DNA from: Takakia lepidozioides
Lineage: Eukaryota; Plantae; Bryophyta
Direction: 5' to 3'
DNA length: 64,000 bases
Assembly (NCBI GenBank): GCA_030704615.1
Contig: CM060734.1
Coordinates: forward strand, 1 to 64,000
Below the pieces are notes generated by a model. The model was not told the DNA's origin. It saw only the letters and a list, made by a program, of their open reading frames with translations, and made no database searches. The translations under genes were made by a program, and so were the position numbers. This document shows, one piece after another, positions 31,801 through 63,700 of the stretch (position 1 is its first letter; the number at the start of each line of letters is the position of its first letter).

Positions 31801-33840
31801 ATCCTTGAGCTGAGTCTTCAGCTCGACCAACTCTCTGTGGCTCAACCGGTAGGGCGCCTTGGCAGGCGGTTCCGATCCCGGTATCACCTCAATCTTGTGG
31901 TCAACTCCTCTTCGCGGTGGCAAGCCGCTTGGTAAATCCTCCGGCATCACATCCTGGTATTTCTCCAAAATCCCCTTGATCCAATCTGGGCTCGGCTCCC
32001 CATCGCCTTCTCTTTTCACTTCTCTAATGTAAAGCAAAATTGGGGCTCGTGTGCCTCCTCCACGGCCCACTCCTTTGCTGATAGAAGGTTTATTCGCCAT
32101 CCCACGGATTTGGGCGTTTCCGACACTCGTAAAACCTCGCCACCATTCCCACATGGCAGCGTGACTACTCTCTTGCGGCCATCTATGACCGCTCCGGATT
32201 TGGTCAAAAGGTCATCCCCAAAATGAGATCCACTCCATCGATCTCGCAGATGGTGAAGTTCTCACGTCCCTCCCAACTCCCCAGTTGAAGAGGAACATCA
32301 AACGCCAACCTTGTCGCCAACTGTGGTTCTCCTTTGGCAGAACGTACCTCAATAGAGGCCCCCACGTCACTTGTCGGGAGTCCCAACTTTCGCGCCGCCG
32401 CCGGCGTCATGAAGGAGTGCGACGCTCCTGTGTCCACCAACAACGACACGTTAGTTCCGGATATTATCCCATCCACGAACAATAACTGACTCCCTTTACG
32501 CAGGGCGCCAGTTTCCTGATACAACTCACAAGAATAGTTGCCTACCTTGCAAGTCCTGGCGACCACCGCTTCCACCAAGCGACTGATGGTATCTTCCGAC
32601 AGCTCCGTGGTTGCCCGAGTCATGTTCAATTGTTGAGGTTTTGTGCACTTCTTGGCCATGTGCCCAGGCTCCCCGCAATTGAAACACACTCCATCAAAGG
32701 TCGCCTTCTGTCCGCCATAAGCCGCTCCACCCGTTTTTCCTTTCAAAGCACCGGGTGCCGCCTTGACGTGTGAAGGCCCTCCCTTCGATTTCCACGTGCC
32801 ATTGTCGCCGCGTGGCCTATCCCACTTCTTTTCCGGTCGGGAGGAGTCACCTTCCCGCCGGGTCTTCTTGTGGTTCAGCTCCGTACGGCCTTGTCTCTCA
32901 CCCCTAGGGACATCCGAGAAACATTCAGCCCTCTCAATTGCCTCGTTCAAAGTCTTGGGTGGCTTCTCCTCCAACTTCCGCCTGGCCCATGGGGCCAATC
33001 CCGCCACAAAGTTGAAGACCATTTCTGGTTCTGCCATGTCCGCGACTTCGAGCAACAGCACATTGAAAGCCTGGACATACCCCCAAATGTCATCTGTTTG
33101 CTTCAAATTCCTCATCTTGTCCCGGGCAAGCCAGGACGCGTTGAGGGGCACAAACTGTCTCTTCATCAATTCCTTGAACCCACTCTAGTCCAAGGTTTCC
33201 GGGCTTGGACCTCGGTCGTGAAGGCGTTTCTGCCACCATTGTTGAGCATAGCCCTCAAATAGGTGGGAGCCACTTCCACCCTATCCTCGTCACTCAACTT
33301 GGCCGCCCGGAAGTACTGCTCTAGCTCCAGGAGCCAGGTGTTGAGTGCCTTCCGATTTTGGACGCCCTCGAAGGTGCCGGGTTCCTTAGGCTTCACCTTA
33401 AACTTTGCCTTAGTGGAAGTGGCATTAGCCGCCTTCAACACGTCTTTCAACGTCCCGCCAAACTGCGCCAACAACCCTTCCCAAAACGCTGCCGGCATGG
33501 GAGGCATCTGTTGGTCGGTCGGAGCTCTCACGGATTCCTCGGGCTCCAACTCCTCGGATTCCTCCCGCTCTTGAGCGGCCTCGCTTTCAGAAACTTGCGT
33601 CGCTTCCTCAAACGGCCGCTTCGGTGACACGTCGCCCCCATCGGGCTCACCAGGATTATCATCTTTTGGGCCGTTCCGCTTTCGCTTTGGCTTGCCCGAC
33701 CCCAGGATGAGGCCAATCCCAAGGACGATCGCGTACTGAACTCTAAGCTCTGATACCAAGTGTCGCGCACCTCACTTCGATAAGCTCCCCTTCAAGTCAT
33801 AGTTACTCGCTTTGATGCGCGCGCCTGACTCCCAACCTTT
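28813..33840 (-). mobile_element. Ty3/gypsy chromovirus LTR retrotransposon, near-complete internal region (gag-PR-RT-RH-IN-chromodomain)
   Basis: tRNA-iMet PBS TGGTATCAGAGC (~33747-33758) next to an LTR end ...GCGACA at 33761; gag with CFNCGEPGHMAKKC; protease LVDTGAS; RT YIDDIL; RNaseH TDASDFAIG; integrase H-H-C-C and DDE; GPF; chromodomain EYEVEAILKSR..EYLVKWKGY..SW; PPT GTGGGGGAGGAAA (29113-29125) followed by TG. About three frameshifts. Both LTRs are truncated. Confidence 0.93.
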
Positions 33841-35361
33841 TAGTGATTGGCTGTGGCTTTTTCTTTTGTGATAAGGTATGCCACTTTTTTTGCATTACGA
33901 CTGATTTTGGATAGGGAGGCAAGCCATTGGGGAAGGGAGGGGGTGTCCGTGGGTGGAGATAGGAGCGGTTGGTACACTTCTAATGTATTTAAATAGGTTA
34001 TGCGGGGGTCAGTTCTCCAATTGTTACATGCCGGGGATAGGGAGTGGGGTATGACGGCAAGGGCCTGTCCAATGGTGTGGTAGATATTGAGGTGGGAGGA
34101 CCATGCCCATTTCTGGGTCCTAGTGAGATATCCTCCATTTTGCTTTGAGTGGGCGGTCTGGGGGGGTTGAACATGTGGCTAAGACACTTTTAGTCATGTC
34201 TAGCATCGTAGATGAGAGAGTAATCTCGGCCTCGGTCCATGCGGCCTCGGGAGATAAGAGTGTATTAGTGTCTGAGAGGGTAGAGGAGATCTTATGTATG
34301 AAGGTAGAGGAGGTGGTGTGGAAGTGTTCTTGGAAGGCCTTGAGATTGTTTTGTGGGATGGGTGATAGAATTCTGGGTTGAGGGGGTGGGGTGTGTACGT
34401 CCGGGAGGGGTCAGAAGGGGATAAGAGATGGGGGAAAAGAGATAGAGATCAGGTAGTGATCGGAGTTGCATAGGCTATTGATATGGACATGGCTGTGAAG
34501 ATATGTGGGGATTTCATTACTAGATCTGAGGTAAAAGCCATCAAGCAAGCTTAGGGAGGAGTAGTGGAGACCCCTTTGTCGGGAGTAGTGGTAATCGGCA
34601 GGGATATATTTGAGCTTTAGAGTCTGAGTGAATTTGGCCCAGTCGTGATCCGGGGCCGAGGGTGGTTTGTGAATACCATTATATGAATGACCTAACAGTG
34701 CAATGTCCCTGTTAATAAACAATTTAAAGTTTGTAGTAAAAAATAAATGATCATCTTTAATAATAATAATAATAAATAAAATAAATGATTACTTGAAAAA
34801 TTTCCGAGTCAACAGTCACAATAGTCGCTGCTAGGATGACGTGATGGTGATGGTGGTTTGGGTGGGTGACTGTTTGGGAAATACTATGCAATATTCCAGT
34901 ATGAAGGGGAGGTCGTCTATATGCGAGGGCATATATAAATGTATAAGGGTAATGGGGCATAGTGATGGTGGGTGTAGTTGGATAATTTGTAGGTGTGAGC
35001 GGATGGGGACAGGGACAGTGATTTTAGTAGTGGTGCTGGGAGAATGGTGTGTGCGGAGGATGCCCAGTGCAACGCCACCCCTAGTGGGCTTATAGGGTGC
35101 GGAGCGGCGTAGGAGACATTGTTGAGCATTTAGAGGGTTACCATAAAATAGATGATAGTTGGGAAGTAGTTTGTTTATGTAAGAACTGCTAGTGTTATTG
35201 GTGTGTAGTTTGGTTTCCTGCAGGAGGAAGACATGTGGTTGTGCTGTGTTAGAGAAGAGGTGAAGCAGGCTTTGGATACTGGTGGCTAAGGCGCCCACAT
35301 TCCATGATGTGATGGTGAAGGTACTGGGATCAAGTTCGGAAATGGGGGGGTCATGTCTGGG

Positions 35362-35410
<49 letters not shown>

Positions 35411-37670
35411 GGTTGGTGTGTGTGGGGGCTGTGGGACTATTTTGTGTGGTTGGAGGGTCGTAGCCAGGTATCGGGGTGGTGGCATTGAGTGTGGCGGTAA
35501 TAATGTCTGTAGAGAGGAATGGGATTTGTTAGTGATGTGGTTGTGCCCGTGGTACGATGTGGAGACCAATGCCAGTTGGTCCCCCAGGATATTATGAACA
35601 ACCCCAGTTTGGGAGTCAAGTAGTTTGAGGGAAGCATGGATCTCGGCTAAGTAGTGCGGGGGGGGCATGTATTTAGTAGAGAGTGGTGGCATCAAGCTTA
35701 GTTGGCGTAGGAGAGATCGGATTTTTGAGGTCAAGTGAGATTTAAAATATCCGTTACATGTTTTTGGTAAAGGGGAGATGGTTACGACAAGCGAAAAAAT
35801 GAGCTGTGGGGCGGAGAAAGTCTTGAGTTTAGATAGGGCTGTAGCAAGTGCTGGGCAACTGTTGGGGGGTAGCCTGAAGGTTGTAATATGGCGAGAAGGG
35901 GTGTTCTTTGTGTTTTGGCATTTTGGGAGGAAGGGACTGAAGTGGTCGAGAATATGGCGGTAGCTATGTATAAGAGAGATATAGTTACGCTTGCTTCGGC
36001 AACGCGTCCACCTTTTTTTAAGAGAGATAGTGTTTGGTTGAAAGTATAGGGTATATCTCTCTTGCTCGTCTTCAGATAGAGTCTTGATAATTTCGGTAAT
36101 GGTAGGCGGACCAGGGTTAGGGTGAATATCACCACACCTCAAGAGGATTAGGTCTTGGCACGAGTGCACATATACTTGGTGAGGGTTAGGGGGGTCATGG
36201 TAATAATGTTTAGATTTTGTGGGGAATTTGTAATGTCGGCCGTATGGGCCATGGATGAGGGGATTGATTCGTTGGTGCACATGGCGGGTTGTCAGGTTGT
36301 GGGAGGAGCTGATGAGTGGTAGGGAATTATGGTGGGTAGATTGAGAGATGGTGGAGCTAGTGGAGGAAACATTATCATCCACTTTACCTGGCTAGGGAGT
36401 AGCCTGTGTGGCGGCCCTGTATATAGGGGCGATTTAGCTGTGTTTGTTTAGTGGGTGTACTTAAGGTGGCGGGGAGGTAGGCATTGCATATGTGGTGGAC
36501 TTAAGTGGGATGCATTCATCCACGATTTTTTTATATCCGTTGGTAGTGAGATAGATTTAGTGTTTATATAAGGGGGTGTAGTTTGGTAGAGATGACTGGC
36601 CAGCAGAGAAATGGGGAGAAGTGGGCCGCTAGCTTTCTGCGTATACTGAATCTGGGTGACAGACGCAGATGTCATATTATTGGGTTTGAATAATTTTAGG
36701 GGGGTGTTTTTATAAAAGGTGGCGGGACAGGTGTCAAGTGGTGCGTACGGGAGTGACAAGGTGGCGGGCGCGGGTAGGCCCTGCACGCGGGCCCCATAGA
36801 ACGGGTGCGGGGGATGGGGGCTGTCGTCAGGCAGGGCATAGTGGGTTCTCGAGAGGAGGGGAGAGGGGAGCTTTGAAATAGGGGGGAGTATGAGGTGCAC
36901 CAGCCGGCGGAGCACGGCGAGTGTTGAGAGTGAGCGGTGCTGTGGGTGCGGTGGCCGTGCATAGAGAGTTTAGGTGTTAGTTGGGGCGTTGCGGAGTCAG
37001 TATAGTAATTTGAGTGTAAGAGTTGAGTGCATAGATTGTACTCATAAGACGTTGTTTGCCGTAGCCTTGAGTTGAGTGCATAGAGATGTAGTGGGACTTG
37101 GCGGGTAGCATAGACATAAGGGAGCAAGTTCAATATGTGCGCATTGCATTGAGAAGCAAGGGAGAACAAAATGGCCGCAGCCAACATAGAAGAAAAGCCA
37201 TGCCATGGTGACGGCCACCTTGGATTCCATAGCAGCCAGCTCGCCTCTAATGTCGGTTTTGATGGTGATGGCATGTTCCGTGAGCTTTCTGTCTATTTCT
37301 AGCATCGTGGTATCATGACCTTTGCAGGGGCCTGAGTCCGTTTTAATGCTGATAGAGTTGACGGTATCTGCCAGGGCTTGAATTATATTGGTGACTCGGA
37401 GGCGCTCCAGAATTTTGTTGGCAGGGGGTACTGAGCCGTTCAGGCTATTCGTGTGTGGCTCGAATTTCACCAGCCTGCCTAGCACCTGTGTCGGGGCTTG
37501 TTACATCACTGAGTGTATATGCTGGGATTCTTGCAGGTGATGAGTGCCATGCCTGAGTGTTTGGTTTTCTCCATTGGGGGCGATTTTACTAAAGTAGACT
37601 TGAATGAGTTATCTTTGCCGAAGGCGTCCCTGAGAGCAGCTTCTGTAACCTCTTGGAAATGTAACGGGTC
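33841..37670 (-). mobile_element. APE-type LINE (ORF1 remnant, ORF2 N-terminus with 2A-like motif, AP endonuclease); RT absent
   Basis: Endonuclease motifs TITSWNV, FLLQETKL, GGVAL, HVILA.D..NRD, LDGFYL, SDHYLI. ORF1-like segment at 37042-37688. GDIHPNPGP at 36107-36133. A 47-nt poly-G tract at 35363-35409 marks the frameshift. Confidence 0.8.
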
Positions 37671-42639: not shown

Positions 42640-44518
42640 TGTTACCATCCCTATCCGAGGTGGAAACTCCAAGATAGAAGAGTTAGAAATCTCTAAGCAC
42701 TCGGTCCGCTCAGAACAATCAGTCGTGACCTGCAACTAGTTTATCAGAGGGGTGTTTCCTATTTGTATTCCTTCTCGCATTAATATTAGCAAGTTATCTT
42801 ATTGTCTATGATTAAATATCAGATTGTTTCTACAATCTTCCATGTTCCATCTACCCAGGGTAGGCCCTATCACCGAAGTGAAATGCATGCCACGATCAGT
42901 ATCCAAAGAGACAATTGGAACAAACTATGCCATGGTGTCTCTAATCTGTTCTACAGTGCATCTCTACAGCTTGCATGAATCAAACATCATCTCGTCGTAT
43001 CTCCTCCTCTGTGTAATCTCCATCCATGCGCTTCCAAGATCGTGCTCTCCGCCTGATCTCCCCCAGTGATGTCCAAGAAGTGCTCCCCCCAAGAAGTGAC
43101 CTCTCAATGTTGCTACTCTGTCTATTCTTCCTGTAAGCCGTTCTAACCGCCTAACTAACTAACTATCATCCAAGACAAAATGCATGTTCCATGTGCAGAT
43201 GTCGTTCCCACACAGTCGTTCCCTGCCAATGATAACCGTTCCCTGTGAACGTTGTGACGGGTTGTGTCGGGCTGTGACTGGTTGTGTCGGGCTATGTCGG
43301 AATGTGATAGACTATGACTGACTGTGATAGGCTGTGTAAGGCTGTGTAAGGCTGTGTCAAGTTGTGACAAGCTGTGTCAGGCTGTGAAAGCTCGTGACTG
43401 ATTGTGTGAGTCTGCCTACCACCCCTAAGGCCTGTGTCTGTCACCCCTAAAGCCTCTATTGGTCTGAGCCTACCATCCGTAAATCTGCGCAAAATTAAGG
43501 GTACCCCACAGAATCCGTAAAACTGTCTAAGTCCAACCTTCTAACATTATCCCTCCCCCTCTCAAAAAGCCGTGTCCTCATGGTTTATTATTTAGGATCA
43601 GCAAACCTTTGTGAACGAACACCCTTCTACTAGTGAGAGTCCCTCGGAGGGCTCTGTGTGTGAGCCCGAGCCATGTCGCTAGTTGGTGGGGATGACTGTC
43701 GACTAGATGGAACTGACTGCCCTGCCTTTGTCTGATAAGGAGGCAACTTATCATTTTTACCTTAATCTGTTCACATTCCCGCTTGGAATGACCACTAGGA
43801 CTGTATATGTGGCAAAGGTTCCCCTTTGCCGGACACGTAAAAGGTTCCGTTACCTGTCCTCTTGATGCATTAATGGGCTCGTAATAAGTTTCGGCTGATG
43901 TACTGGGTAGGTACTTTGACGGCCCTGTTTGTCTTCTTGTGTGATGGCGGTCGTTATTGCAGTATATGCAATGCGGAGTGCTTTGCCCCTTAGGCCAGTG
44001 TTTGAATTCAAACACTCTTCCGTTTTCCTCTGACCACGTGGCATATTCTCCGAGTTTGACTTCCAAATTGTCTTTACACTTACCGGCCACCTAACTGACG
44101 TTATCTTGCATCCATCTGTCACTGCCCTTATGGATTGTGCGACCTGTGTGGGCTGTGTTGCCTGTGTTGGGCTGTGACAGGCTGTGAAAAGCTGTGGTAA
44201 GCTGTGGTAAACTGTGATATGCTGTAATAGGATGTGGTGGGCTGTGATGGCTGTGTGAACACCTATGTTCTCTGCTATAGCCATTTACATTCGGCTTTAT
44301 GACAAGTGCTTCATACTTCCCTGGTGCTACTGGTGTAGCTGGTGACTGCATCTGTGTTTCAAGATGCAAATCATGCTGCAATGGTCTATCATGGATACCA
44401 CTGTATCCCTTCAACTTATTGGCATTGACTCTACCAAACATCTCTTTGTTAATGGTTTGTAACATGGTTGTGTTTTATCATACATCTTCTGTATGACATA
44501 AGGTCCTTTCCATGGTGA
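42640..44518 (-). mobile_element. 3' LTR (42640-43546, TGTTA...TAACA) plus PPT and gag-like remnant of a second, apparently pol-less LTR element
   Basis: Perfect 5-bp terminal inverted repeat; adjacent minus-strand PPT GAGAGGGGGAGGGATAA|TG; degenerate zinc-knuckle-like CIYCNNDRHH and CHIYSPSGHSKREC in ORF 43578-44090; GCTGTG repeats in both the LTR and the internal region. Confidence 0.65.
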
Positions 44519-45025
44519 TGTCGTGCACCTAAGCATCGTGCCACAACATACATCGCTGTCCACCACACAATCTAAACACACAATCCTAGAAAGCTATATC
44601 ACAATAATAAGAGATGAGAAATGAGAGAAGTGGAAGACAATGAAAACTATCAAAGCATGAAGCAATCACACTAAGAACAAGCCCTAGTCCTTCCAAGTGA
44701 AATCCACTCTATCACATAAACTAAGTCAAGCTAAGGGCACCCTTGCTAAGGGAATCCACCCTACAAAGCCCTCAACACACTTCCTCTCAATACCTAGAGC
44801 TATGGAGGTGAGAGAAGCTTATGGAGGCTCAACTACAAGAAGATGAGCCTCCTCCATCCTCACAAGGGGAAAACCTAACCCCATGTCCCAAGTGAGGCTC
44901 GACACCTCACTTGGCATGTGAGACCCAATGAAGTCCCAACACACCAAATATAAATATAAATATCTAAAATGTCATAGTTAACTAGAAGTAGGTAATTCTA
45001 GATAACCATGACTAAAACCATGACA
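44519..45025 (-). mobile_element. 507-bp LTR of the DNMT/PHD gypsy element
   Basis: Minus strand TGTCATG...CACGACA. Its last ~84 bp are repeated at 45028-45112 next to the PPT, and its first ~420 bp recur inverted at 52148-52579. Confidence 0.85.
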
Positions 45026-45112
45026 ACTGTCGTGCACCTAAGCATCGTGCCACAACATACATCACTGTCCACCACACAATCTAAACACACAATCCTAGAA
45101 AGCTATACCACA

Positions 45113-48100
45113 ATCGCCCCCCTAGGTGATTAGGTCCCTCTAACACCGGATAGCTGACAAGTATCCATCCCAATAAGATCATCGCGTGGTCATCAATCGC
45201 CCAAGTCCCAGTATCTGAAGGCAATAGATCAAGAGGCCGGGTGCAAAAGTAGCCCCATCGTTACTCGCCTTCCTGCAATCCATGGCTTCATTTGGGTGTC
45301 AATGGCATCGAACTCCCGTTAGCTAGACCTTGGATCACTTGTCAACCTCGCCACTGTCATGCCCCACTACCTCTGTCTAAGGCATCGTGGACACAACCAT
45401 TCCCCACTAGGAACCTCCTCAAGTGGCGATGTCAAGCATCCCATGTGCCACCCCCTTGAGCATTTGTCACACACCAACATGGTCGCGGCACCACCAGCAT
45501 GCCCACATAGTATGCAACGCAACCCTGCAGGTACCACTGCAAGGTTGGGATCTATCATCCCATCCACATGTGGAAGGTGACATGGCGCACAATTGTGCAC
45601 ATGGTCCTTCCATACCATGCCATCTCGACCCTCCAGAATCAACACTCATGAAGACAACACCTCCCGGACCCTTAGAATCACACGACCTGCTGTGACATCC
45701 AAGGTCGTAAGCACTGTCTGCTGCAGATACACATAGTCCCGAGGATGGAAACGCCGAACACCTGGCCGATATCCCCCTCCATGTATAGTGGCGTACCTCA
45801 ATGTGTCTCGGTGTTAGGCAATAGCAAGGTTCTCAAAAGCACTCTCTTGAACAACTCTGCCCGTTGGGCACATGCTTGTGTCCACACATCCGGATCATCA
45901 AGGTTGAGGACTACTGCAGTCTCCCTGCGAATAGATGCAGGCAAATCTGGCTCTCGGCCAAAGAGAAGGAAATAAGGCGAGAACAAGGCAAGTGATGCTT
46001 GCTTGTTAAACCTGTAACCCATGGCCAACCAAGGTAGCTGAAGGTCCCAATCTCCCAAGTGTCCCTTCTGCAAGCCATACTTGCGCAAACCTCGCTTGAC
46101 TGTTTGCACAACCCTCTCAACCAAGCTATTAGCCTCGGGATGATCCCGAGAAGTAGTGCGGTGATCTATCAAGGTTTGCTCACACAAAGCCTGAAACTCC
46201 CCCAAGAACTCTCTCCCTTGGTCCGCGAGTACCTCGGCTGGAGCACCAAATTGGCTAAGCACTCGATCTAAGAATGCATACGCAGCCCCCTCACTTGCCT
46301 TGTCAGGCAATGCCACCAATTCAATCCATTTGGAGAAATGTTCTACCATCACCAACACATACTTGTTATGGCGAATCGTTAGTGGCAATGGGCATGCGAA
46401 GTCAAAGACTCCAACGATAGCCCAAACCCATAATGGGTAAAAGATGCAATTGTGGAGTAGGTGCATTGAAAGAAGCCCGCACTCTATCACACATCATGCA
46501 CCTTGCCACTAACTGTTGCACATCCGTGTGCATGCCCCGCTACTAATACTGTCCTTGCAACAAACTATGAGTGCGCCGCACTTCAAAATGTCCGAACTCC
46601 TCATGGGCATGGCGTACCAATCGTGCTCGTTGTGTTGGATGAGGCACAATCCTCACTCGTCCATCCTCCCATACTCGGAGTAGGTGAGTCCCCTCCCACT
46701 TGAACCTCTTGGCTCGTTGTAGGATCCGATCTCTCTCCTTAGCAGTCACATTAACTGCTGTCTTTCTAATACGAAGGTAGGCCAACACTGCTGCATCTTC
46801 ATGTACATCTTTAGCACCACCAAGCTCCTCACTAATCTCTGGATCGTCATGCACACTATCTCTATGACCAATCACATAGGATGGACCAGCTTGAGCTCCC
46901 ATTGCTAGAATGCATAAAAAGGCAGATGCATGCCATCCTGGCACCATCTCCTCGTCTGTCTCATCATGCCAATGAGCTCTTGTATCATCAAGCTCACTTG
47001 TGCATGGATTGCGACTCAATCCATCCGCATCCCGGTTGATTATTCCGGCTCGATGCACCACCTGGAAGTCGTACTCTTGAAGCATAAGTGCCCACCGTGC
47101 AAGCTTCCCTATAAGCTTGTCTGACTCCATCAACCACTTCAATGGTTGGTGATCCGTGACAAGGGTGAAGAGATTGTCATAGAGGTAGCATCTAAAATGT
47201 GTCACTGCCCATACTGCAGCTAGACACTCATCTTCATAGGAACTAAACTTCACATCGGCATCATTGTTCGAGCGGCTAGCATATGCCACTACAAACTCTC
47301 TTCCCTCATCATCCACCTGTGTGAGCACTGCTCCAATCCCTAGCATACTCCAATCCGTATGTAGCTGGAAAGACCGCCCCCGAATAGGCCGCCTCAAAAT
47401 AGGCGCAGAAGTCAATCGAGCCTTGAGTTCCTCAAAAGCCTGCTCTTCCTCCCACTGCCACTCCTAACCCACCTTGGTCAACTTGGTAAGAGCTTTTGCA
47501 ATGCTGCTAAATCCTTTGACAAACCGTCGATAGTAGTTTGCCAATCCCGTGAAAGCACGAACTCTGCTCACATCCATGGGGCGTGGAATGCATGCAATGG
47601 CCTCCACCTTTGTCTGTTGAACATCCAATCCTCCAGGGTATATCATGTGGCCTAAATACTCAATCTGATTATGGAAGAACTTGCACTTTCCGGGGTGCAG
47701 TTTCAACCCGTGTGCTCTCAAGCGCTCAAACACCATCTTAAGGTGTCTCTCGTGCTCCTCAATCGTAGCACTAAAGATGATGATGTCATCAATGTAGCAC
47801 CGGGCAAAGTCTAGCCCCGCGAGAATCCTATCCATGACCCTCTGAAACTCTGCAGGAGCATTCTTCAACCCAAACGATAAGAACCGCCATTGGTACAAAC
47901 AATCATTCCTATGTTGGTCAATCCCCCAGAATGCCGTCTTTTGCTTGTCAGCTTCTTTGATTGGCAACTGGTGGTAACCGGATCGCAAGTCCAATGTGCT
48001 AAACACCTTTGCATGCCCAATGGCATCAAAGATCTCCTCTGGAGTTGGCTTGGCATATCTATCGGACTCAGTCTGACGGTTCACAAGACGATAGTCCCCA

Positions 48101-50509
48101 CACATCCTTCTTTCTGTCCAATTGCCATAGATATCCTTCTTAGCTAGCATCACCGTTGCCGAGGCATACTCCCCGCCTGACAACTCCACTAATCTAGCTT
48201 CGAACAACTCCATAGTCCGTGACTGGATCAATGACCTCTCCATGTAACTGTACCGGTAGGGCCTTCGAAAGATTGGCGTGTCACTTGTCAATTCAATATG
48301 AATTTCTTGACCCTTCAAACTCCCCAAATCCTTCAATCCGAAGGCAAAACAATTTCTATAAGCCCTTAGAAATCGCCGAATCCTCCGTCTCTCTCCTTCG
48401 GTGACTGTAGGTCCAACATCTGGTTCCCAATTGTCCTCAGTGACTGCAACCTTGGGTACACCAGGCTTGGAGGTAGGAGACGCATCCTTTGGTTGCTAGA
48501 TAGCAACCTCTTGGGCCTTGTCCGCCCATCCTAACTGTGGCGTAGCCTCCACTTGCTCCGCCATAGCCACCTTGAGAACATCCTCTGGGGAAGAAACATC
48601 TTCAACCTCTTCAAAAACCTTAGCCACCTTGGCCTCCAACTGATCCTCAGTGTATGGCTCTCCCCACTCCTCATACTGTTGCTTGAGAGATCCAATGACT
48701 CTCTCTTTGCGCATCTCATCCCACATCTGCCATGGGTGTTTGCACCCCATGATCCTGTGCTCGCCCCCACTCACTGCCTCCACCGTCACGGTTGGCAGAG
48801 ATGGTGCAATATCCAATGGAAGTGCAGAAGTAGCCACTAATGCTTGCAATCTTTGTTGCTTAGCCATGCACAAGCCAATGACCCATGTCAAGCAATTGAG
48901 ATCCATTGCCTGACCCAACACTTGGCGTCGTGATGCCTCTGACAGAGCTGGCACAGCTGTAGTGCGCGTGACAAATCCCATTACCGGCTCTCGCTCATCC
49001 GCATTGGGCTCCATCAATTGTTGTAGCACACTATCCCAAATCAAACCAGGACCATTGTCTCGAAAAGCATGAGATGAGGGAAAGCTCATGAGCGTAGGCA
49101 AGGTTGTACGTGGCTACCCCACTCGATTTACCACTGCTAGAGGTGGACGGTCATCATGTCGCACCCTCTGTGGTTGCCTCCCTTGGTCCAAAATGCCCTC
49201 AACTGTGAGATTGGGTGGTCGTTGAATGGAATCGTATGCTCTCTTGAGCAGCTCTGGTGGTGCAAGATTGGTCCACCACAATCGAGGTCGATGCGCTCGT
49301 GATCCCACCGCTGCTGCATCCAATAGCACCGCCGATCCAATCCAAGACCGCACCTGATGCACACTGGCCATAACCTTGGCCCGAGAGTCCCCCATAAGAG
49401 GAACATTCTCCAATATATAGGCTAGAGGTTGCACTTGCCTCGTCTGCAAGTCACGCAACACTCTCAACATCTCCCAAAACAAATGCGATCGTGTATCATG
49501 CAAGCCATTCCCATGACCTGCGGGAGAGTGTCATTGGCAAGGCCATCCAGCTATCACCAAGTCAATGGCACCATGCCGGTCCAAATCATCCGCCGCCTTA
49601 CAGAGGCGGATTTGGAGCCTTGCCCTTTCCAAATTCAAACATCTTTGGGTGGTTCAGAGAAGGTGCGAGGGATTACACGTCATGAGCTCTTCATTCGATT
49701 GCAGCCGGATCATCCTACGGATGGCTCAGTCATGAGAGCTAAAGCCATTGTTACAGATGCGATGCCCTATGATGTGCTTGTTGGTGGGGCTGTGTTATAC
49801 CCAATGGGATTTACCCTGGACTTTTGGGAGGAAACGACGTCCTATAGGCCGGAGTGGCAATCAGGGGATGCTCGACGTGCACTGCTCCCAGTGCGGTTTA
49901 TTGGGAATGTAGCGGTGGATCATAGGAACATGATGCCCACATTGACTGCATTCTCAGGGGTGGCGGCTTGGGGTGGTGAATTCTTGGAGGACAATAGCCA
50001 TATAGATGATAGACCACCATCTGATAAGGACAAGCACATGGCATATAAGGCTGAGTTGCTTCCTCATGTGCCTGTGCATATTCCACTGTGGGGTACGGTT
50101 GGGAATGTGCAGCGAGTAGCAGGCGAGAGTGTGCACCAAGCATGGCAGGAGGCCTTTCCATTGATGAGTGAGGGGAATTCAGTGACATCACCTGGACCTC
50201 CTCAATTAGCTCCTTTGGACACAGTGCCCATTACCTGACAACCATCTGACTCAGGGATTTGTTTGCTAGACCTGTTTGGAGGCATGAGCACTGGGCTTGC
50301 AGGAGTGTTGCAAGCAGGAATCAAAGTACGCAAGTACTTGTATGTGGAGAAGGATGAGATTGTTCGGCGTGTTTCCATGCGCCATGTTGCCTTGCTCACA
50401 CATCAGTATCATGAGTTGTTGCCTCTTTCAGCAATTCAAGGGTACCAAAAAGCCTTGCCAACAGACATTACCTTGCTGTGCTCAACTAGCCCAAATCGCA
50501 GGGCCATTG
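45113..50509 (-). mobile_element. Ty3/gypsy internal region: protease - DNMT3-like cytosine methyltransferase - RT - RNaseH - integrase - PHD finger - PPT (49570-50502 inverted)
   Basis: [11 protein letters not shown] and YIDDII (47464-48336); RNaseH TDWSMLGIGAVL and TDHQPL (46543-47415); integrase DQGREF and ERVVQTVK (45798-46490); PHD C4HC3 (45382-45516); DNMT motifs IV/VI/VIII/X on the minus strand (48500-49569) and motif I on the plus strand (50263-50509); protease-like segment 49590-50238(+); PPT CCTAGGGGGGCGAT (45113-45126). Confidence 0.9.
48860..50509. pseudogene. C5 cytosine DNA methyltransferase domain (DNMT3/DRM-like) within the gypsy pol, split by an inversion
   Basis: Motif I LLDLFGG; II YLYVEKD; IV DLVIAGWPCQ (PCQ at 49534-49542); VI YILENV; VIII LLDAAAVGSRAHRPRLWWTNL; IX/X EREPVMGF..T..SRRQVLGQAMD. 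In-frame stops at 49531 and 49114. Confidence 0.88.
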
Positions 50510-52147
50510 GGGTCGAGAGGAGCCTGTCTAAGAAATGCACCAATACGCGGGTTGTTTCTGTGCCAAGTAGCCCTGAACACAACACTATCATTGCTACGCA
50601 ACAAAACGGACAATACACATGCAATGATCGTCATCGATCACGTTTCAAGATGGGTGAAGGTGAAACGTGGGCAAGAGAACAATGCCAAGAGGACCTCACA
50701 ATTCCTAGAAGAGCAATGCACATATAGTTATGGACTTCCAAGCTGCACGTTGAAAAACAGAAGCAGCAGGCAAGATGTACTGCAAGATGGTACAAGAAGG
50801 CGATGGACTAGGCCTCGAATGGAGCTCAAGGAGCTGTGCACAATTGAACTCACTGAGCACACGGAAGGTGGCACCGAGGACGGAGGCAGCCAAAAGACAG
50901 AGTGCTCTACAGCTGTAGGGTAAAAACGCGGGGACGTGTGTTTATTTCTCGGACATGGATTCGGTCGGGATACTTGACGGGTGACGAGGGCTGGATGAAT
51001 GGCCAGGAGATGAAGGTGCGAGGAAACAATTCATTCGAACTAAATCAAGGATGAATGCGAACAAAGTAAAAGGGCAAAAATCTGTTCATTGGGTAGATTC
51101 ATGGGGCGTGATGGATGGAGAAGGGATCAGCTGGCAAAATTGGATGAACTGGTAAAGTTCATCCAACTAGTGACAAATTGGTAGTTGGCAGATTATTATA
51201 GCAAAACAACAGCTAAACTAAGGCCTTTGTCGTATGCATGCAGCTTGAAAGGGGGAGTAATACCCGCAAGTTTGCATTAAGACATTAGAGAAGTTCACGT
51301 GCACAACATGATAAATTTATGAAGTGGGCAGCGCACCGTCCGGTGGAAGGGGTGGCTGAAGGGGATTTAGGAGTGAAGGATGGGGGAAGAAGACATTTTT
51401 TGGGCAGGACTGAAAGTAGGAAGAGAGGGAGATGGAGAACACGGAGATGGTGTGAAGATGGTATGGCAGTAAAGTGGAGTGAGATGTTGGTGTTATCCAT
51501 GGTATTCTCGATTGGAAGTGGAAGCACTGTAAATCAGGAGTCTTGCTTTCTTTTCAGCGATGAGTGTTGCTCAAGAATGAGAGTGGTATGTAGTATGAAA
51601 ACGAGTGCATAAAGGAGTCATCTTTGTCGAGAACTTGCAAGAACTTCATACGTCAAGCATCAAGTATTATGCAGTCCAACCTGTTGGGCAGATTGACAGT
51701 GCAGCCATCAGAACTGGGATGTAACGATCAGATCAAGAAGGTGGAACGTGCGGATACACGGATCAGATGAACCATCAAGTGCTGACTTCTTTTGCTTTGG
51801 ATGAAATAGAAGAAAACAAATAAACAACAAAAAGAGTGATTGTGAAAACGTAGAGAGAAGGAAAAGAGAAATAGCTAGGGGACTGGATGTTGTTTTCCTC
51901 TTCCGCTGCAGCAACATTTATTCCTTGAGCACTAGTGAAGTGGGACATGTGACAACAAGAAGTACATGGAGCCCCCTTCTTTTTTGCTCTACAGAAGTAC
52001 GTGCTGATGATGCAGATAACATGACCAGAATTCAGATGAAGACGAAGGATCAGTTTGATTAAGGTAAATTGAAGACTTTTAAGACAGGTGATTTGGTACT
52101 GTGGTTGCAGAAAAAGGGAAAGATTAAAGCTTCTAAGCTTAAATCAC
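50510..52147 (+). mobile_element. Highly decayed gypsy integrase remnants, interrupted by a GGATGAA-repeat insertion and by the LTR at 52148
   Basis: PIRGLF..VALNT..MIVIDHVSRWV (50540-50670) and KTFKTGDLVLW (~52070-52105). Confidence 0.5.
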
Positions 52148-52579
52148 TGTCATGGTTTTAGTCATGGTTATCTAGAATTACCTATTTCTAGTTAACTAGG
52201 ACATTTTAGATATTTATATTTATATTTGGTGTGTTGGGCCTTCATTGGGTCCCTATTGGGTCTCACATGCCAAGTGAGGTGTCGAGCCTCACTTGGGACA
52301 TGGGGATAGGTTTTCCCCTTGTGAGGATGGAGGAGGCTCATCTTCTTGTAGTTGAGCCTCCATGAGCTTCTCTCACCTCCATAGCTCTAGGTATTGAGAG
52401 GGAGTGTGTTGAGGGCTTTGTAGGGTGGATTCCCTTAGCAAGGGTGCCCTTGGCTTGACTTAGTTTATGTGATAGAGTGGATTTCACTTGGAAGGACTAG
52501 GGCTTGTTCTTAGTGTGATTGCTTCATGCTTTGAGAGTTTTCATTGTCTTCCACTTCTCTCATTTCTCATCTCTTATTA
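52148..52579 (+). mobile_element. 3'-truncated LTR of the same family as 44519-45025
   Basis: Reverse complement of ~44604-45025 with few substitutions and an 11-bp internal duplication; starts TGTCATGG. Confidence 0.9.
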
Positions 52580-53887
52580 CTACAAGAAGATCACCTTATG
52601 CTTGTGAGTGTGGAGTGTAAGGATTAGTTTTGCACTTGTATGTTAAAGAGGTTGAGAGCTAGGAGAATTTAGCTCTTGTAGCACAAAGCTTGCAAGGGGT
52701 TGCAAGAAAAGGTGCTCGAGTATTGCATGCACCAAGGAGTTGGAGAGCTTGAGAAGAAAGCTCTTGAGTCACAAGATTTTGCAAGGATTGCAAGGAGGAA
52801 GTCTTGTGTGTGTGGAAGCATGGATTCTAGAGTTTGAGAATCCTTTGTATGCATTATGGAGTCGATGGTGTGCACCATGGCTTGTGGAGAGTGACTAAAG
52901 GCTTGTTAGAGCTCATTTCACTATCAAGCTAGGGTTAAGCAAGTTCAAAGTGTGGATGTTGTGGAAAAGAAGCCAATGAGCTACATAGGCTTGGGCTTGA
53001 AGACAACAAGCGCAAGTACTTGGAGAGCACTAAGAAGCTCAAGAGGTTTTGAAAAGGAGCACGTGAAGAAATCTTCCAATCATGGTGGTGTGGAGCCAAG
53101 CTTAGGGCGCCATTGGAAGAGCTTGGAGAACATATGGTGGGAAATCCTTGAAGGGAAATCATCATTCAATGTATGCATAGCTTCACCCTAACTATGTAAT
53201 GTGACAAGAGGGGGAGGCAATACTTGGTTATTCATGCTCTTGGTAGTGCGAGCTTTGTGGTGGATAGTTGACCAAGCAAGTGGTGCATGTGTGGAGCATG
53301 CTCTCTTGAGTTTGTAAGTTCAAGTTTGAGAATGAGAGCTCTTGAACTAGCAAGAGGTGAAGGCCTTGATATCCATTTGTGTGTGAAGTGGAGAGGTGTT
53401 GATTCATGTTATGATGAAGGAGAGCAACACATAGGCCAAGAGGTCATGGAACATGCATTCAAATGACCAAGGGGAGCACATGGATGATAGATTGGTGCAA
53501 GACCCCAAATGAGGCATATGGCGTGAGAGTCAGATCCAAGGCGGATTGCTTGGGAGCATTATTGTAAGTGACAAGCATTGCTTCTACACATTGAGATAAT
53601 TTGTGTTGATTTGGAGCAATTGTCAAGTGATGAGGAGACAAATGCATGATTGCTCGGCAATGAAGATATGGTAGTTTGCAATCAAATCCCAAGGACTATA
53701 AGGGGGATTGATTTGGTGGACAATGACTTGCAAGTTGAGTTGGACCACTCTTGGTTGCACATTGGAGTGGAAGAGAGCAAGAAGATGCTTCTTATGACCA
53801 CCTAGAGACCATATTTTTGCTTGAGTAGAAGCATAGAAGTCAAGGACTTGCATTCTAGCTCTTCATTACAAACCCTAGTAGTGTATG

Positions 53888-54190
53888 CTCAGACTATACC
53901 TCTGTTAGTATACCAAACAGGAGCTTGTCCATTTTACTATACCTCTATTGAGGTATCACCATATGTGAACCCTAATCAGCTCAGATTATACCTATGTTAG
54001 TATACCAAACAGGAGCTTGTCCATTTTACTATACCTTTGTTGAGGTATCACCATATGTGGACCCTAATCAGCTCAGACTATACCTCTGTTAGTATACCAA
54101 ACAGAACCCTCATTTTCAGACTAGACCTCTTTAAAGGTATCATCAACATAAGGGACCCTAGCAACCTCAGACTATACCTCTGTTAAGGTA
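53888..54190. repeat. Minisatellite, 92-bp unit (~2.5 copies plus fragments)
   Basis: ctcagactatacc recurs at 53888, 53980 and 54072; each unit has an internal ctatacctct sub-repeat. Confidence 0.85.
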
Positions 54191-54989
54191 TCAACATTGA
54201 AAGGACTTAGTGAAATTTAAGGGCCTTTGGAGGATTGTTTGGAAGGTATTTGAGGGCCCTTGGAGGAGTGTTTGGAGGATCTTTGGGGTCCTTGGAGGAG
54301 TATTGGAGGACCCTTCGAGGAGCTTTGGTGGACACTGTTGAAGAGCTCTTGAAGGATTGATTGAGGGATATTTGAAGGATACTTGCCACGGCCATACAAA
54401 CGAGTGGATAGAGACATGATGGAGAGTGGTGGGATGAGAGCATTCTGGGGTTAGGAATTGCTTTAGTTTCTCTTCCCCATAGTCTTTCACCATCTCTGTA
54501 GGCCAAAACCTTTCCGTAGGTGGAGGCAAGAGTCAGTCCGGGTTTGGGCTGGGGTGTCATTGCAGCAGCGACACTGTGGAGTGTTTTTGGTGTGGGGGAG
54601 TTGCTGTCTTATTTTCTTGTGTTTGGATCCCCTCCACACCTGCATGCTTGACTGTGCGCCATTTTAGCTTTTTGTAGGCACTTATTTTCATAGGAGGTTG
54701 GTCCGGATTTGATCACCGGCCAATCCTAGAGTATGCTGTCGGTGGTGAGGCTGGAGTGATGACCAGCAAGACCACCAGTGTTTCTTCTATGGTGAGGCTG
54801 GGTTGATGACCAGCAGACCATATGAGTGCTTGCGGTGGATGCAGGTGCAGGTACAGGTCTACGTTAGAAACCTATTATTCCTGCTTGAACCACTAGCCGC
54901 AACAGGTTCTCTACCCGATTACCTTGTGGAAAGTGGGGATTAGAGACAGGTTCACAACCGGTTGGGTTGTGAGTTTTCATCACGGAGGT

Positions 54990-56000
54990 GCCACCAGTTG
55001 CTGAGGGTGCCGGTATGAGCACCAACGATACTAGTGGGTACACAAGACGAGGTGTGCGGTTTAGGCCACCTTCACCTTCAGTGTCTTCTGAGGAAGGTTC
55101 AGACTCGGAGTCAGGAGGATTCTCGCCGAGGGTGCAAGCCATTTCCGTGCCATTATTGTGGGATACGATGGAGGAAATGTATGGAGCTACTAAGGGGCCA
55201 CGACGGTACTCTGGAGCTGTGGGCATCATCGAGCTTGATGATTTCAAATAGGAGTTTGATAGTTGGTGTGATTTGCAGCAGATGCGTAATCCACAACTGT
55301 TTACGCCTTTTATGGCGTGGAAGAGGCAGCACCTTGAGGGGCCGCCTATGGATGACTATCATGAGTTTAGGCGGGGACATGAGGTGGAGATTGAGGAGTG
55401 GCGACAATATTGGTCACCTGACTATGTCTCCATCACTAGAGGCACAATTGTGGTACATGGGGAAAAGCTTTCAAGCAGTACCTGAGTTCATGGATTTCGG
55501 AGGCCTTTAGCCCGAGCTGACGGAGCTCCGCGGTGGATTGCATCTCCTTGATTATGGGCAGTTCTGTGTCCAGCGCATGTTGTTGGAGGACCTGATAGCC
55601 CATCCACAGCTGCGGCGGGGGTGGGAGTTAGTGCCTTCGAGAATTGGTGGATGTTCGTTTGAGGGGGGGGGGCCCTGGATTTCTTGGGTTCGGAGTGTCA
55701 GCGGCGATACTAGCAGCCACACCAATATCCCCAAATGCAAGCACTAGTAGTGGGACAAGTAAAGATGGAGCTGGGAAATCCACTCAAGCTCCTGCTGCAG
55801 CACCAGCACCCGTGCCTGCCTTTAACCCAGTTGTGGAGTTCTTCGAGGAGTTGAGGATAAACTACCAGGGGATAAGGACGAAGAAATTGCGGAGCTTACA
55901 AGAGTTCCAGCGCAAGCCTACTGAGAGTTTGATGGAGGCTTATACGCGCATGAGGCGATTGATAAATATAACCCAAGGAGTTACAGAAGCTCAAGCAGTA
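54990..56000 (+). mobile_element. Retrotransposon gag remnant (possibly of the DNMT-gypsy family), with an internal insertion at ~55465-55735
   Basis: ELDDFK*EFDSWCDLQQMRN..PMDDYHEF..FNPVVEFFEELRINYQG..LRSLQEFQRKPTESLMEAYTRMRRL, a major-homology-like Q...ES...Y..R pattern. Confidence 0.65.
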
Positions 56001-57482: not shown

Positions 57483-60223
<2,741 letters not shown>

Positions 60224-61435
60224 TGTACTACGTCGGCCACCTTCAGTATCCTTATGCTGCCAATATGGTACTGACAGCTTCTCTCCCTCCCCCAGGATAG
60301 CTTCAAGCACAAGTAAACTCAAGCTCAAGGTGGAACGCTAGAAGTCACAACAAAGAACTGTGGACAAGTATCGAGGACCGTCTGGAACAGTGGGTTAGCG
60401 TGCTCGTACATCGTCTGCCACCTCAGTAAATGGGTGCCCGTATGGAAGAGGCACTCCTACACATCAACTCCACATTGCTATAATCCTCCCTTCTTTTTCT
60501 CTATCTTCACACCGTTGACACCAACAATATCAAGGCGAGGGCAGGCGAACACATGGATGCAAGAGTTCATAGACACCAAGCGGCTGCGCACAGACATCAC
60601 CGCGACATCAACTGCGAATGCGACCACAGGTCCACGGCCGACTGTGCAGTGCTGGCTTCTAAAGAGCCTGCCTAAGACAGCACCTCCCAATCAGTAACTT
60701 TCTTTGAAGAGAGATCACTAGAGAGAGAAGAGATATTCTGATTCATTCACGCAGGTAGGGGTCGCCACAAGTTCTCAGCTGAAGGGAGAGCAGTATGCGG
60801 AGAAGATGCACCGCCCTACACCAAAGATCCCGCAACTGATCCCCGCAAATGGAGAGGAATTTCCGTTCTTCTCCTTCTCGAACAAGACTTCCAGGAGAAG
60901 AAAAGATGGCAGCCCAGCTGGCTATATGGGAGGGTGCAGGGTGTGGAGATTGGAAGACGGCACAGTTGGCCGAGTTGAGGCAGCGTGTGAGGGAAGGCCT
61001 CCAGAAGCAGCGCAGTCATGGCATGGCATGCATGCATGCATTGCCTGCTCTTCTGCCACACAATTATAAACAAATATTGGAAGTATGTTGCCGGCCCATC
61101 ATTTCCCACCCATCAGTGCATGTTTAGGGGGCTCCTCCGTCCGCAATGGAAGAAATACCAAAGAAACCAACCGATGCAACTTTCGTTAAGGATTTTGGGT
61201 GTTTATTACGACATTTAACAGACTAATAATAATCACTAAATTCCCCTGTCCATGTTAGTCTGTGGACGTAATGCACCCTAAGTGCAGATTACGGTTCATA
61301 ATGCGCTGTTTTGCCTTGCTGCTCTAATAATAATGCGATACGTGGCATGTAAACACTCAAAACCCTTCACGTGCTGGAAAGGTTGAGCACCGGCGCCTAA
61401 TGCTGTGTAAGACGCGGGGTATGGAATACCAAATG

Positions 61436-61560
61436 CTCGACAATTTTACTATCATCTAGGACCGTCGACAAATCATCTACGACCCTCAACAAATCATCTA
61501 CAACCATCGACAAATCATCTACAACCATCGACAAATCATCTAGGACCGTCGACAAATCAA
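61436..61560. repeat. 21-bp minisatellite (cgacaaatcatctacaaccat)n, ~6 copies
   Basis: Direct inspection of the tandem units. Confidence 0.85.
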
Positions 61561-62029
61561 CCACTAGTGGCTGTAGATGATTTGTCCAGGGTTGATTTTG
61601 TGGGCAAACAGTATTCGTTGGAATACCAAATGCCCATGTCTTCATCCCACTTGTTCAACGAATATTCTCTAATAGATTCTTAGATCCTTCAAATTTATGC
61701 TTAGATGCTTTCATCTTTGATTTGTCGGGCATTTGGTACATGAAGCATTTGGTACATGAAGAAATACCGTATGACAACGTCCCTCCACAAATCAACTTAG
61801 TTCTTCACACCACTTGTTGACAACATGGGTGTCAACACCGTAGGTGGAGCCATTAAGGCAGGCGACGCCAACAAGGTTACTGGCGCCAGTAAGGGAGGCG
61901 GCGCCAGGTTGTTGGCACAACTTAGTTCAGATTGGCCCAACGTAATTTCTGATAAATACATATATATACATATACATATACATAGAGAGTTTAGGGTTAT
62001 TTGCATAATTCAAATATGATGAGACCTTG

Positions 62030-63700
62030 TCATTAAGAATGTTGGACTATAACGTAATAATTTGATGATATTTAAAGAACAACCAGATCTAATATGTGGA
62101 CGTATAATCTATAGCGTTCTAGTTTATTCGTATTACTTAGAATTTTTATATAATGAGATGTGCAATAAAATATTGTGAATTAAAAATCACAAAGGGGTAG
62201 AGATTGAATTAAAATCTATCCTATAACAGCCTTATTAAATGCATATGAAATATCACAATTCAGTGTTCACTCTTACATGTGTTTTCTATTATTATATTGG
62301 TCATTTATGTGTACACATAAGTAGAATATTCTCATTGTCCTGCAATAAGTTATTTTTAATTAAAAATACAAGGATGTGTGAGACCGGATTATAAAAAAAT
62401 AACAAAATGCAGATAAGATTTCATAATTTAATATTCACTCGTACACGCACTTGCTATTATTATTATATAGATCATTTATGTGTATCCCATGAATTCAAGA
62501 AGATTATGAGTAACCTATGCATAGGATGGATGCATAGGAATTGTGATAAAGAACAATTGGATCTAATAACATGTGTGCACGTATACTCTATAGTTTTCTA
62601 GTTTGTTCGTAATACTTGGAATTTTTGTATTGACAGATATGCAATGAAATATTTTTAACTAAACAAAATTACAAATATGTGACAGATCCAATAAATCTAT
62701 TCTATAACAGCCTTCTTAGATGCATATAAAATATCACAATACCCTGTTCATTCTTATTTTAAAATTTAAAATTTATTTTAAAATACAGATAAGACTTCAT
62801 AATTTAATATTCACTCGTACCTGCACTTGCTATTATTATATAGATCATTTATGTGTATCCATGAATTCAAAGATTATGAGTAACCTATGCATAGGATGGA
62901 TGCATAGGAATTGTGATAAAGAACATTTGGATCTAATAACATGTGTGGACGTATACTCTATAGTTTTCTAGTTTGTTCGTAATACTTGGAATTTTTGTAT
63001 TGACAGATATGCAATGAAATATTTTGTATTAAAAATAATTACAAACATGTGACAGATCGAGTTAAAATCTATCCTATAACAGCCTTTTTAAATGCATATA
63101 AAATATCACAATTCCCTGTTCATTCTTATATGTACCTTTTATTATTATATTGATCATTTATGTGTACAAAATTTTCATTGTCGTGCAATAAGTTGTTTTA
63201 AATAAAAAATCACATGGATTTGGGAGATCAAATTGAAAAAATGAATAACAAATATCATTTTAATATGCAGATTAGATTTTATAATTCAATATTCAATCTA
63301 ACATGCACCTCCTATTATTATATAGATCATTTATGTGTATCGCATGAATTGAGTGACCTATACAACTGAGTGTTATGAGTGACCTATACATAGGCTGCAC
63401 GATTTAGATATGATGTATAGATACACAGTCAATGCATTTCTGTACTTAAATACTTATAAATGTTTGAAATATTGTGTTCATAAAACTTAGAATGTTTTGT
63501 ATTGCTAGACATGCAATGCAATGTTCTCAATAAAAAATCACAAGGATGTGACAAACGAAATATAAAAGATTATATAGCATCATTTATAAATAGGTATAAT
63601 ATTTAACATTTTCATTTTCATTTCTACAATGTACATGACACATGTACCCCCCAATATTATGTAGGTCATTTATAATAAGTATATCATATAACCAAGATGA
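62030..63700. repeat. AT-rich degenerate tandem repeat, ~480-bp unit (one copy shortened to ~370 bp)
   Basis: gatctaata..gtggacgtata at ~62086, 62560 and 62930; aaatctat.ctataacagcc at ~62212, 62693 and 63065; cagataagat..cataatt at 62410, 62786 and 63268. Confidence 0.8.

Follow-up and report, generated by a model that had tools for sequence, protein, structure and literature searches.

A DNMT3-carrying Ty3/gypsy lineage in a land plant, with an inherited stop codon ahead of reverse transcriptase and a candidate circular route to integration

Do land plants harbour retrotransposons that carry a DNA methyltransferase of their own, and if so, how would such an element produce the enzyme and copy its ends? 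The question is raised by the first 64,000 nucleotides of contig CM060734.1 of Takakia lepidozioides (GCA_030704615.1), hereafter the window, where an initial annotation made from the letters alone had recognized, at 44519-50509, a Ty3/gypsy element with a DNMT3-like methyltransferase (DNMT) inside pol. The DNMT and pol part stands as proposed, but the element reaches to 55990, and its 5' repeat A1 (52148-52579) and gag (55168-55990) had been overlooked. The whole element, 44519-55990, has the repeat layout A-coding-B-A-B and a 4-bp target duplication. Our overall reading, to which we give slightly better than even chances, is that it belongs to a streptophyte gypsy lineage that would use a leaky stop codon, prime its own reverse transcription, open a circle of complementary DNA (cDNA) at an inner palindrome and carry the DNMT in its particle to methylate that cDNA.

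All five C5-methyltransferase motifs named in the initial annotation were found at their claimed places between the protease and the reverse transcriptase (RT). LDLFGG lies at 50266-50283 on the + strand, inside a flipped piece, and the - strand holds GWPCQ (49548-49534), ENV (49410-49402), AHRPRLWWTNL (49296-49264) and RRQVLGQAMD (48930-48901). In a Pfam scan the 138-residue piece after PCQ matched PF00145 with an E-value of 4.4e-6 (26.8 bits, cut-off 22), and the flipped N-terminal piece and the motif X piece gave no methylase match when each was scanned alone. RVT_1, RT_RNaseH, rve and PHD also passed their cut-offs in window pieces, so that each profile named for checking in the initial annotation (PF00145, RVT_1, rve and PHD) had a match. 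The PHD finger is without the tryptophan of H3K4me3 readers and presumably resembles readers of unmethylated H3 tails. The family profile matched DNMT3A best (E 1e-19), ahead of DRM (1.6e-10 to 8e-9) and bacterial enzymes (4e-6 or worse), and a structural model of the relative P0005 (pLDDT 82.6) matched DNMT3A/B structures (DNMT3A, E 7e-18). Judged by profile and model, the domain is a DNMT3-type C5 methyltransferase with the canonical, non-permuted motif order, which agrees with the earlier assignment.

The DNMT piece of the window has 42 longer relatives, including proteins from Marchantia (up to 73% identity), Calypogeia and Sphagnum; relatives of the family also occur in Closterium, and a profile search of 50%-identity representatives yielded 432 proteins at E 1e-30 or better. 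With these 42 relatives and 52 loci the domain is family-wide and not a one-off capture. In the DNMT alignment, the catalytic cysteine is kept in 175 of 182 rows, the glutamate in 180 and the arginine of motif VIII in 176. Comparisons of the window with the loci L001, L003, L005 and L015 yielded nonsynonymous divergences (dN) of 0.23-0.29 at nearly saturated synonymous divergences (dS) of 2.2-2.5. For deep DNMT pairs the dN/dS ratio was about 0.1-0.2 and so not near 1, a value the initial annotation had named as adverse. By these ratios, the DNMT is under purifying selection across deep pairs, and since the ratios are low and the three residues are kept, its catalysis is probably selected for.

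Many of the 52 loci show the order gag-protease-DNMT-RT-RNase H-integrase-PHD, while the named relatives from Marchantia, Calypogeia, Sphagnum and Klebsormidium are known here from proteins alone. In the tree of RT and RNase H (156 rows), the window grouped with Marchantia, Calypogeia and a moss family, followed by a Coleochaete transcript, and a clade with a support of 0.939 united this group with elements from Closterium and Klebsormidium. In the DNMT tree (182 rows), the elements with DNMT before RT formed one clade (0.996) that includes the Klebsormidium protein P0261. Supports are FastTree values on midpoint-rooted trees with weak inner nodes; rows covering <330 or <200 residues and the members of sequence clusters were omitted, and the DNMT tree was built without host DNMT3 or DRM and the RT tree without a named Tf1 or Tcn1 sequence. 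The K. nitens frames KFL_013780020 (gag-protease-DNMT) and KFL_013780010 (RT-RNase H-integrase) lie on the same 7497-nt contig, apparently one of the copies in de Mendoza et al. 2018, with identities to the window of 40% in DNMT and 45% in RT-RNase H. Since both trees place these frames of a single contig together with the window, the parallel lineage considered in the initial annotation is unlikely. As judged from the trees, the family is the KnitGypsy-Dnmt3 lineage, by common descent for both RT and DNMT, and the simplest reading is one old capture of the DNMT inherited through the streptophytes.

A second group, separate from the DNMT-before-RT group in both trees, has the order RT-RNase H-DNMT-integrase-PHD (P0034, P0038, P0042, P0172 and others; locus L136), and DNMT follows RT or RNase H in 69 of 191 proteins. 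The RT-RNase H of the moss family (L005) is 82% identical to Calypogeia P0330, against 69% for that of the window, a likeness that may reflect old paralogy or transfer between bryophytes. The loci L133-L136, L139 and L140 are eukaryotic retrotransposon contigs in prokaryote genome bins, with one protein publicly labelled cyanobacterial. Viral contigs contained no relative of the polyprotein and gave weak methylase matches only. In public gene sets, frames of the family are listed as hypothetical proteins or methyltransferases.

The initial annotation had taken DNMT, RT and RNase H for a single polyprotein, which is correct as to the shared frame but not as to the stop between DNMT and RT. From 49596, one - strand frame runs through DNMT motifs IV-X, RT, RNase H and the start of the integrase, with stops at 49533, 49116, 48498, 47466, 46545 and 46542. 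A stop at the position of 48498 is present in 33 of the 34 scorable loci (34 of the 52 were readable at the DNMT-RT joint), as TAG in 23 and TAA in 10, and is directly followed by CAA in 31 of the 33. In the intact locus L133 it is the sole stop (TAG CAA TCA) over 1162 plus 1047 codons. Because it is kept in 33 of 34 relatives, we conclude from the comparison that the stop at 48498-48496 is inherited and not a product of decay.

The window stop reads UAG-CAA-CCA, which is a plant readthrough context, and the full CARYYA context is present in the window, L001, L034/L035 and L133. In plants, UAG-CAR-YYA is reported to cause the stop codon of tobacco mosaic virus to be read through (PMC2754532). 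With an inherited stop, the enzyme ends the Gag-protease frame and pol lies behind a probable leaky stop, so that pol is likely made by readthrough at a low rate. A pseudoknot signal after the stop was considered and dropped, as no strong hairpin was found in four sequences (z -0.2 to -1.9).

For a survey of the element ends, all 52 loci were probed with the A and B repeats of L004. In the window the repeats follow one another as A1, coding region, B1, two bases, A2 and B2, and the inserted ends are not two full, like long terminal repeats (LTRs), as A stands alone on the 5' side and B-A-B on the 3' side. The B-A-B arrangement was found in the window, L004, L037, L039, L041 and L134, the last of which represents a third family and has identical B1 and B2 over 106 nt; L003 has B-A, cut by the contig end. 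The 3' end has B only in L015, L025/L027 and L032, and a reversed B-only end is common to L013/L016. No B was present ahead of A1 in any of the 11 5' ends with 130 nt upstream, and all four copies with both ends had 4-bp duplications.

In every family, a purine tract abuts B1. The site after A1 pairs with a stretch inside A, with 13 pairs in the window, 13 in L133 and 10-11 of 11 in 7 of the 11 moss copies, whereas 0 of 200 shuffles reached 11/11 pairs; the tRNA-type TGG was absent from the primer site in 12 of 12 copies. The letters of these stretches differ among three families and yet stay complementary, which argues that the RNA likely primes its own reverse transcription. The self-primer stretch forms one arm of a local hairpin inside A at 1830-1860 of L041 and about 7225-7255 of L133, the other arm of which repeats the primer site; such a hairpin could free the primer only if the RNA starts in its loop.

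Given a purine tract before B1 and a primer site after A1, the reverse-transcribed repeat would be B+A. The B-A joint is a palindrome, GACA-GC-TGTC in three moss copies and in L133/L134 and GACA-AT-TGTC in two, with GT at its centre in the window. Extra letters stand at the A2-B2 joint in two of six copies; those of one copy, which is rearranged, begin with 10 bases of the primer site. As B has moved from the left to the right end, the cDNA ends would have been joined and the product opened at the B-A palindrome. The B-only ends fit circles with one repeat, although recombination between B1 and B2 would also give them. The order of tract, B and palindrome was also found in L136 (DNMT after RNase H; the contig stops inside the palindrome) and L135; of the other loci among L135-L209 none showed the strict pattern, and 2 of 71 fitted a loose one.

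From the features read in the sequence, namely domain order, stop and context, A-coding-B-A-B layout, duplications, purine tract, pairing and palindrome, we infer the following cycle. Gag-protease-DNMT would be made in bulk, and RT, RNase H, integrase and PHD through readthrough; since the enzyme sits before the stop, it should reach Gag-level amounts, far above RT and integrase. The RNA would start inside A1 and end inside A2. Its 5' 11-13 bases would anneal to the site after A1 and serve as minus-strand primer, the mode known from Tf1 and Tj1, and plus-strand priming at the purine tract would give a linear (B A)-coding-(B A). After joining of the ends into a circle, the integrase would cut GACA-GC-TGTC of the left repeat on each strand behind CA, so that 2-nt overhangs resembling processed retroviral ends remain, and the opened circle would be inserted as A-coding-B-A-B with a 4-bp duplication; circles with one repeat would give A-coding-B. 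The particle-borne DNMT would most likely pre-methylate the new cDNA. Integrase cutting at a palindromic circle junction has a proposed precedent in foamy virus (PMC1180852).

Several observations weigh against this overall reading. The moss family alone accounts for many of the 52 loci, and in some cases a single insertion was assembled twice. That family is mostly decayed (median dN/dS of 0.45 for DNMT and 0.56 for RT, 53 pairs), and its stop is followed by CAA CCC plus ATG and not by the full CARYYA, which leaves room for reinitiation or splicing in this family. L032 has no stop, and DNMT and RT are joined in one predicted protein in P0033, P0183, P0245, P0310, P0340, P0341, P0379, P0381, P0389, P0393 and P0419. 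The depth of host contigs is lower over DNMT than over RT-integrase, and subfamilies without DNMT are possible. Only 8 of 12 copies attain 10 of 11 pairs at the primer site, and L044, one of the two copies with extra letters at the joint, is rearranged. The palindrome is present in L135 though its sister families L139/L140 have no methyltransferase, and the end system is for that reason probably older than, and independent of, the enzyme. When expressed in yeast, the domain from Klebsormidium produced no methylation, which its authors describe as inconclusive (PMC5890265). Finally, a circle with two repeats would offer two like palindromes, but no copy was seen to start with A-B-A, and the model needs a bias that it does not explain. 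The boldest step that could be added, in which methylation shields the early-made inner palindrome and leaves just the late-made left one open to cutting, is a long shot.

Other explanations account for parts of the data. If the ends formed as in PAT or Ngaro elements, the RNA would start within A1 and stop within B2, both missing ends would be copied by strand transfers with the inner B1-A2 as template, and a linear product would be integrated without end joining. The layout is exactly the A1-B1-A2-B2 described for those elements (PMC4157794; PMC5890265), the scheme accounts for one of two palindromes becoming ends, and the A2-B2 joints are clean in four of six copies; we nevertheless find it rather unlikely, since the tract abutting B1 and the primer site abutting A1 define an ordinary B+A repeat, the standard pathway of priming after A1 and jumping into A2 would leave B2 uncopied, and both the primer-site letters at one joint and the B-only ends suit circles. 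A true end of the first frame at the stop, with pol made by splicing or from a fresh start just behind it, would suit the ATG of the moss family and the public gene models, which either separate the two frames as genes or fuse them. It seems quite unlikely to us because an ATG is missing at this place from the window and L001, the frame and the CAA (31/33) are kept, and the window, L001, L034/L035 and L133 hold the full CARYYA signal, which works in plants (PMC2754532).

Doubtful, though to be taken seriously, is the proposal that the DNMT acts mainly outside the particle, at the insertion site or on host chromatin, or is a nucleic-acid binding part of the capsid protein. Its place in the abundant Gag frame and not beside RT, the PHD finger on the integrase, the inactivity of the Klebsormidium domain in yeast (PMC5890265) and the end system near DNMT-less families would all agree with this, but the catalytic residues are kept in nearly all rows, and the domain of the related group lies between RNase H and integrase (69/191 proteins), where it would travel with the cDNA. 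The two flipped pieces of the window copy and its loss of part of gag and protease would be expected if the DNMT were a one-off capture or chance neighbour and the odd repeats a rearrangement; this can be regarded as already refuted, because several families share the domain order and end layout across unrelated insertions and host contigs join both DNMT halves. Returning to the cycle with self-priming and an opened circle, we consider it an even bet that an algae-to-bryophyte gypsy clade has separated the ends made by RT from those used by the integrase, with an obligatory circle opened by a DDE integrase, tRNA-free self-priming and, by way of a leaky stop, particles loaded with a DNMT3 at capsid level.

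The window copy, the features of which are listed in Table 1, is dead and rearranged, with two flipped pieces and part of gag and protease lost. The initial annotation had likewise called it dead from the stop at 49533 right after GWPCQ, to which further stops and frameshifts can be added. Residues 201-658 of Marchantia P0001 had no match in the window, where the zinc knuckle and the catalytic half of the protease are absent, and the 5' leader (52592-55167) had no DNA match to moss loci. Host contigs (two runs, one sample) connect 49594 to 50475 across strands, so that unflipped copies exist in the host; no spanning host contig confirmed the flips of the window copy, and an assembly error is possible. 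Empty-site host contigs continue from 52147 into the 3' flank. The insertion target is another high-copy host repeat (44000-44518 and 51993-52147). In run X1, the summed depth of host contigs over DNMT was 114,000-127,000, where the last bin had 570 and single contigs 45-78; this depth is no copy number and was taken only as a sign of a very abundant family. The element has an observed/expected CpG ratio of 0.56-0.60, and the corresponding values are 0.91 for the gypsy element nearby, 0.65 for a host exon and 0.27 for L001; they are confounded by host methylation and were not used.

Table 1. Features of the element copy and its insertion site, in window coordinates
Feature	Position	Strand	Remarks
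Target site duplication TCAC, 3' copy	44515..44518	-	same letters at 52144-52147; empty-site host contigs
Repeat B2, 87 nt, element 3' end ...CACGACA	44519..44605	-	2 mismatches to B1
Repeat A2, 420 nt, start TGTCATG	44606..45025	-	to A1: 412 matches, 8 mismatches, one 11-nt gap
B1-A2 joint GACA-GT-TGTC, putative integrase cutting site	45020..45033	-	palindromes GACA-GC-TGTC or GACA-AT-TGTC in relatives
Repeat B1, 87 nt, putative start of the B+A repeat copied by reverse transcription	45028..45114	-	
Polypurine tract (AGGGGGGCG) and conserved motif upstream of the tract	45115..45144	-	abuts B1
PHD finger, integrase C-terminus	45382..45516	-	PF00628, E 6.8e-11
DDE integrase, zinc-binding part and core	45646..46638	-	interrupted by stops and frameshifts; PF00665, E 1.5e-12; PF17921 below cut-off
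RNase H	47071..47376	-	PF17917, E 1.7e-33
Reverse transcriptase, YIDD	47641..48360	-	PF00078, E 5.4e-33
Inherited in-frame stop TAG followed by CAA CCA	48490..48498	-	putative readthrough site, gag-protease-DNMT / RT-RNase H-integrase-PHD
DNMT3-type methyltransferase, motifs IV-X	48880..49596	-	stops of this copy: 49533, 49116
Flipped piece: C-terminal half of protease, linker, methyltransferase motifs I-III	49597..50478	+	stop 50236
Displaced 5' flank of the insertion	50482..52147	.	last letters are the 5' TCAC duplication (52144-52147); order of events presumed
Repeat A1, 432 nt, element 5' end TGTCATG...	52148..52579	+	no B ahead
13-nt stretch in A1, complementary to the stretch after A1	52340..52352	+	putative self-primer at RNA 5' end
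Putative primer binding site	52579..52591	+	without tRNA-type TGG
5' leader, 2.6 kb, 92-nt tandem units	52592..55167	+	repeated in host
gag, 5' part	55168..55990	+	65-66% identity to Marchantia P0001 residues 1-107 and 135-200

Elsewhere in the window, a host bZIP gene of VIP1/RF2a type with introns lies at about 57990-60337 (-). Among the named matches to its 59228-60337 part, Marchantia was closest (74%), followed by Riccia (72% and 69%), Calypogeia (67%) and mosses (66% and below), in line with the land-plant host assumed at the outset; by themselves, these identities would make a liverwort the most likely host. A second gypsy element, without methyltransferase, occupies 29150-33770 (-), and its RT-RNase H-integrase is 28-40% identical to that of the family studied here. 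A 372-codon frame with a C2H2-like zinc finger at 14747-15862 (+) is probably a host exon, and broken frames at 5829-8284 (+) and 34414-37500 (-) were judged by eye to be non-LTR retrotransposon-like. The segments 61430-61585 and 62073-63622 are repetitive, with 21-nt units in tandem, an inverted copy included, and repeats of 170-480 nt that form an AT-rich block.

As far as its accessible text goes, a 2019 review places methylase-carrying transposons outside land plants such as tracheophytes (PMC6338049), and the accessible part of a 2026 preprint mentions only streptophyte Gypsy-DNMT3. Our literature searches, which could not reach most subscription papers, the repeat databases or the main supplement of PMC5890265, returned no land-plant description of the family and no end mechanism. 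The kind of element is already known from one alga, Klebsormidium; the comparisons presented here would add its occurrence in land plants, the inherited stop and the end model. Methylase-carrying elements are abundant in the host and present in Marchantia, a genetic model, and what an element gains from a methyltransferase of its own, a question left open by de Mendoza et al., becomes approachable in a tractable plant. The end anatomy offers a concrete, testable model for a layout so far given only in a figure legend, and the position of the stop predicts the enzyme as a major particle protein. Circular cDNA is usually regarded as a dead end; if the model is true, circles would be the normal substrate of a DDE integrase. 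Search tools that rely on paired LTRs would presumably miss such elements.

How does the element compare with known systems? The order of gag, protease, RT, RNase H and integrase (unbroken in relatives), the DDE integrase, the TG...CA ends and the short duplication are those of Ty3/gypsy elements, as are a purine tract before the 3' repeat and a primer site, here of the self-complementary type, after the 5' repeat. The closest counterpart is KnitGypsy-Dnmt3 of Klebsormidium nitens (de Mendoza et al. 2018, PMC5890265), likewise a gypsy element whose DNMT3-type domain is non-permuted and evolves under purifying selection; according to the legends of Fig. 1e and 4c in that paper, it has the same repeats A-coding-B-A-B. 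Here, in contrast, the host is a land plant, and the sequences are 40% (DNMT) and 45% (RT-RNase H) identical. That paper places the DNMT in the RT frame, whereas the bryophyte members keep a stop between the two; the K. nitens pair on the 7497-nt contig, read at the protein level, is annotated as two gene models. The accessible text of the paper describes no end mechanism, self-priming or readthrough.

A primer site complementary to the RNA 5' end is shared with Tf1/sushi, Tj1 and the plant Tcn1 chromoviruses (PMC4600332, PMC6317226), and Tj1 of Schizosaccharomyces japonicus also needs an in-frame stop before pol (PMC4600332). Those elements, as described in the accessible text, differ in having two full LTRs, a stop after gag and no methyltransferase mentioned, and the window element has a PHD finger at the integrase C-terminus and no Pfam match to the chromodomain of Tf1/sushi-Tcn1 chromoviruses. 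The leaky stop of tobacco mosaic virus has the same six bases after the amber codon as the window, L001, L034/L035 and L133 (PMC2754532); here it is found in a retrotransposon, and in the moss family the sixth base is C. Split direct repeats of the type A1-B1-A2-B2 are known from PAT, Toc, Ngaro and SymbioDIRS-Dnmt3, some members of which carry a methyltransferase (PMC4157794; PMC5890265). The window element differs from DIRS, PAT and Ngaro in its DDE integrase, TG...CA ends and 4-bp duplication, and no tyrosine recombinase was matched by Pfam in the nine window frames scanned. As in foamy virus, for which a DDE integrase has been proposed to open the circle at a palindrome (PMC1180852), the circle would be cut at a palindromic site. 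The foamy virus palindrome, however, is the end-to-end junction, and normal LTRs are restored, whereas the palindrome of the window element lies inside the repeat and the inserted copy is permuted.

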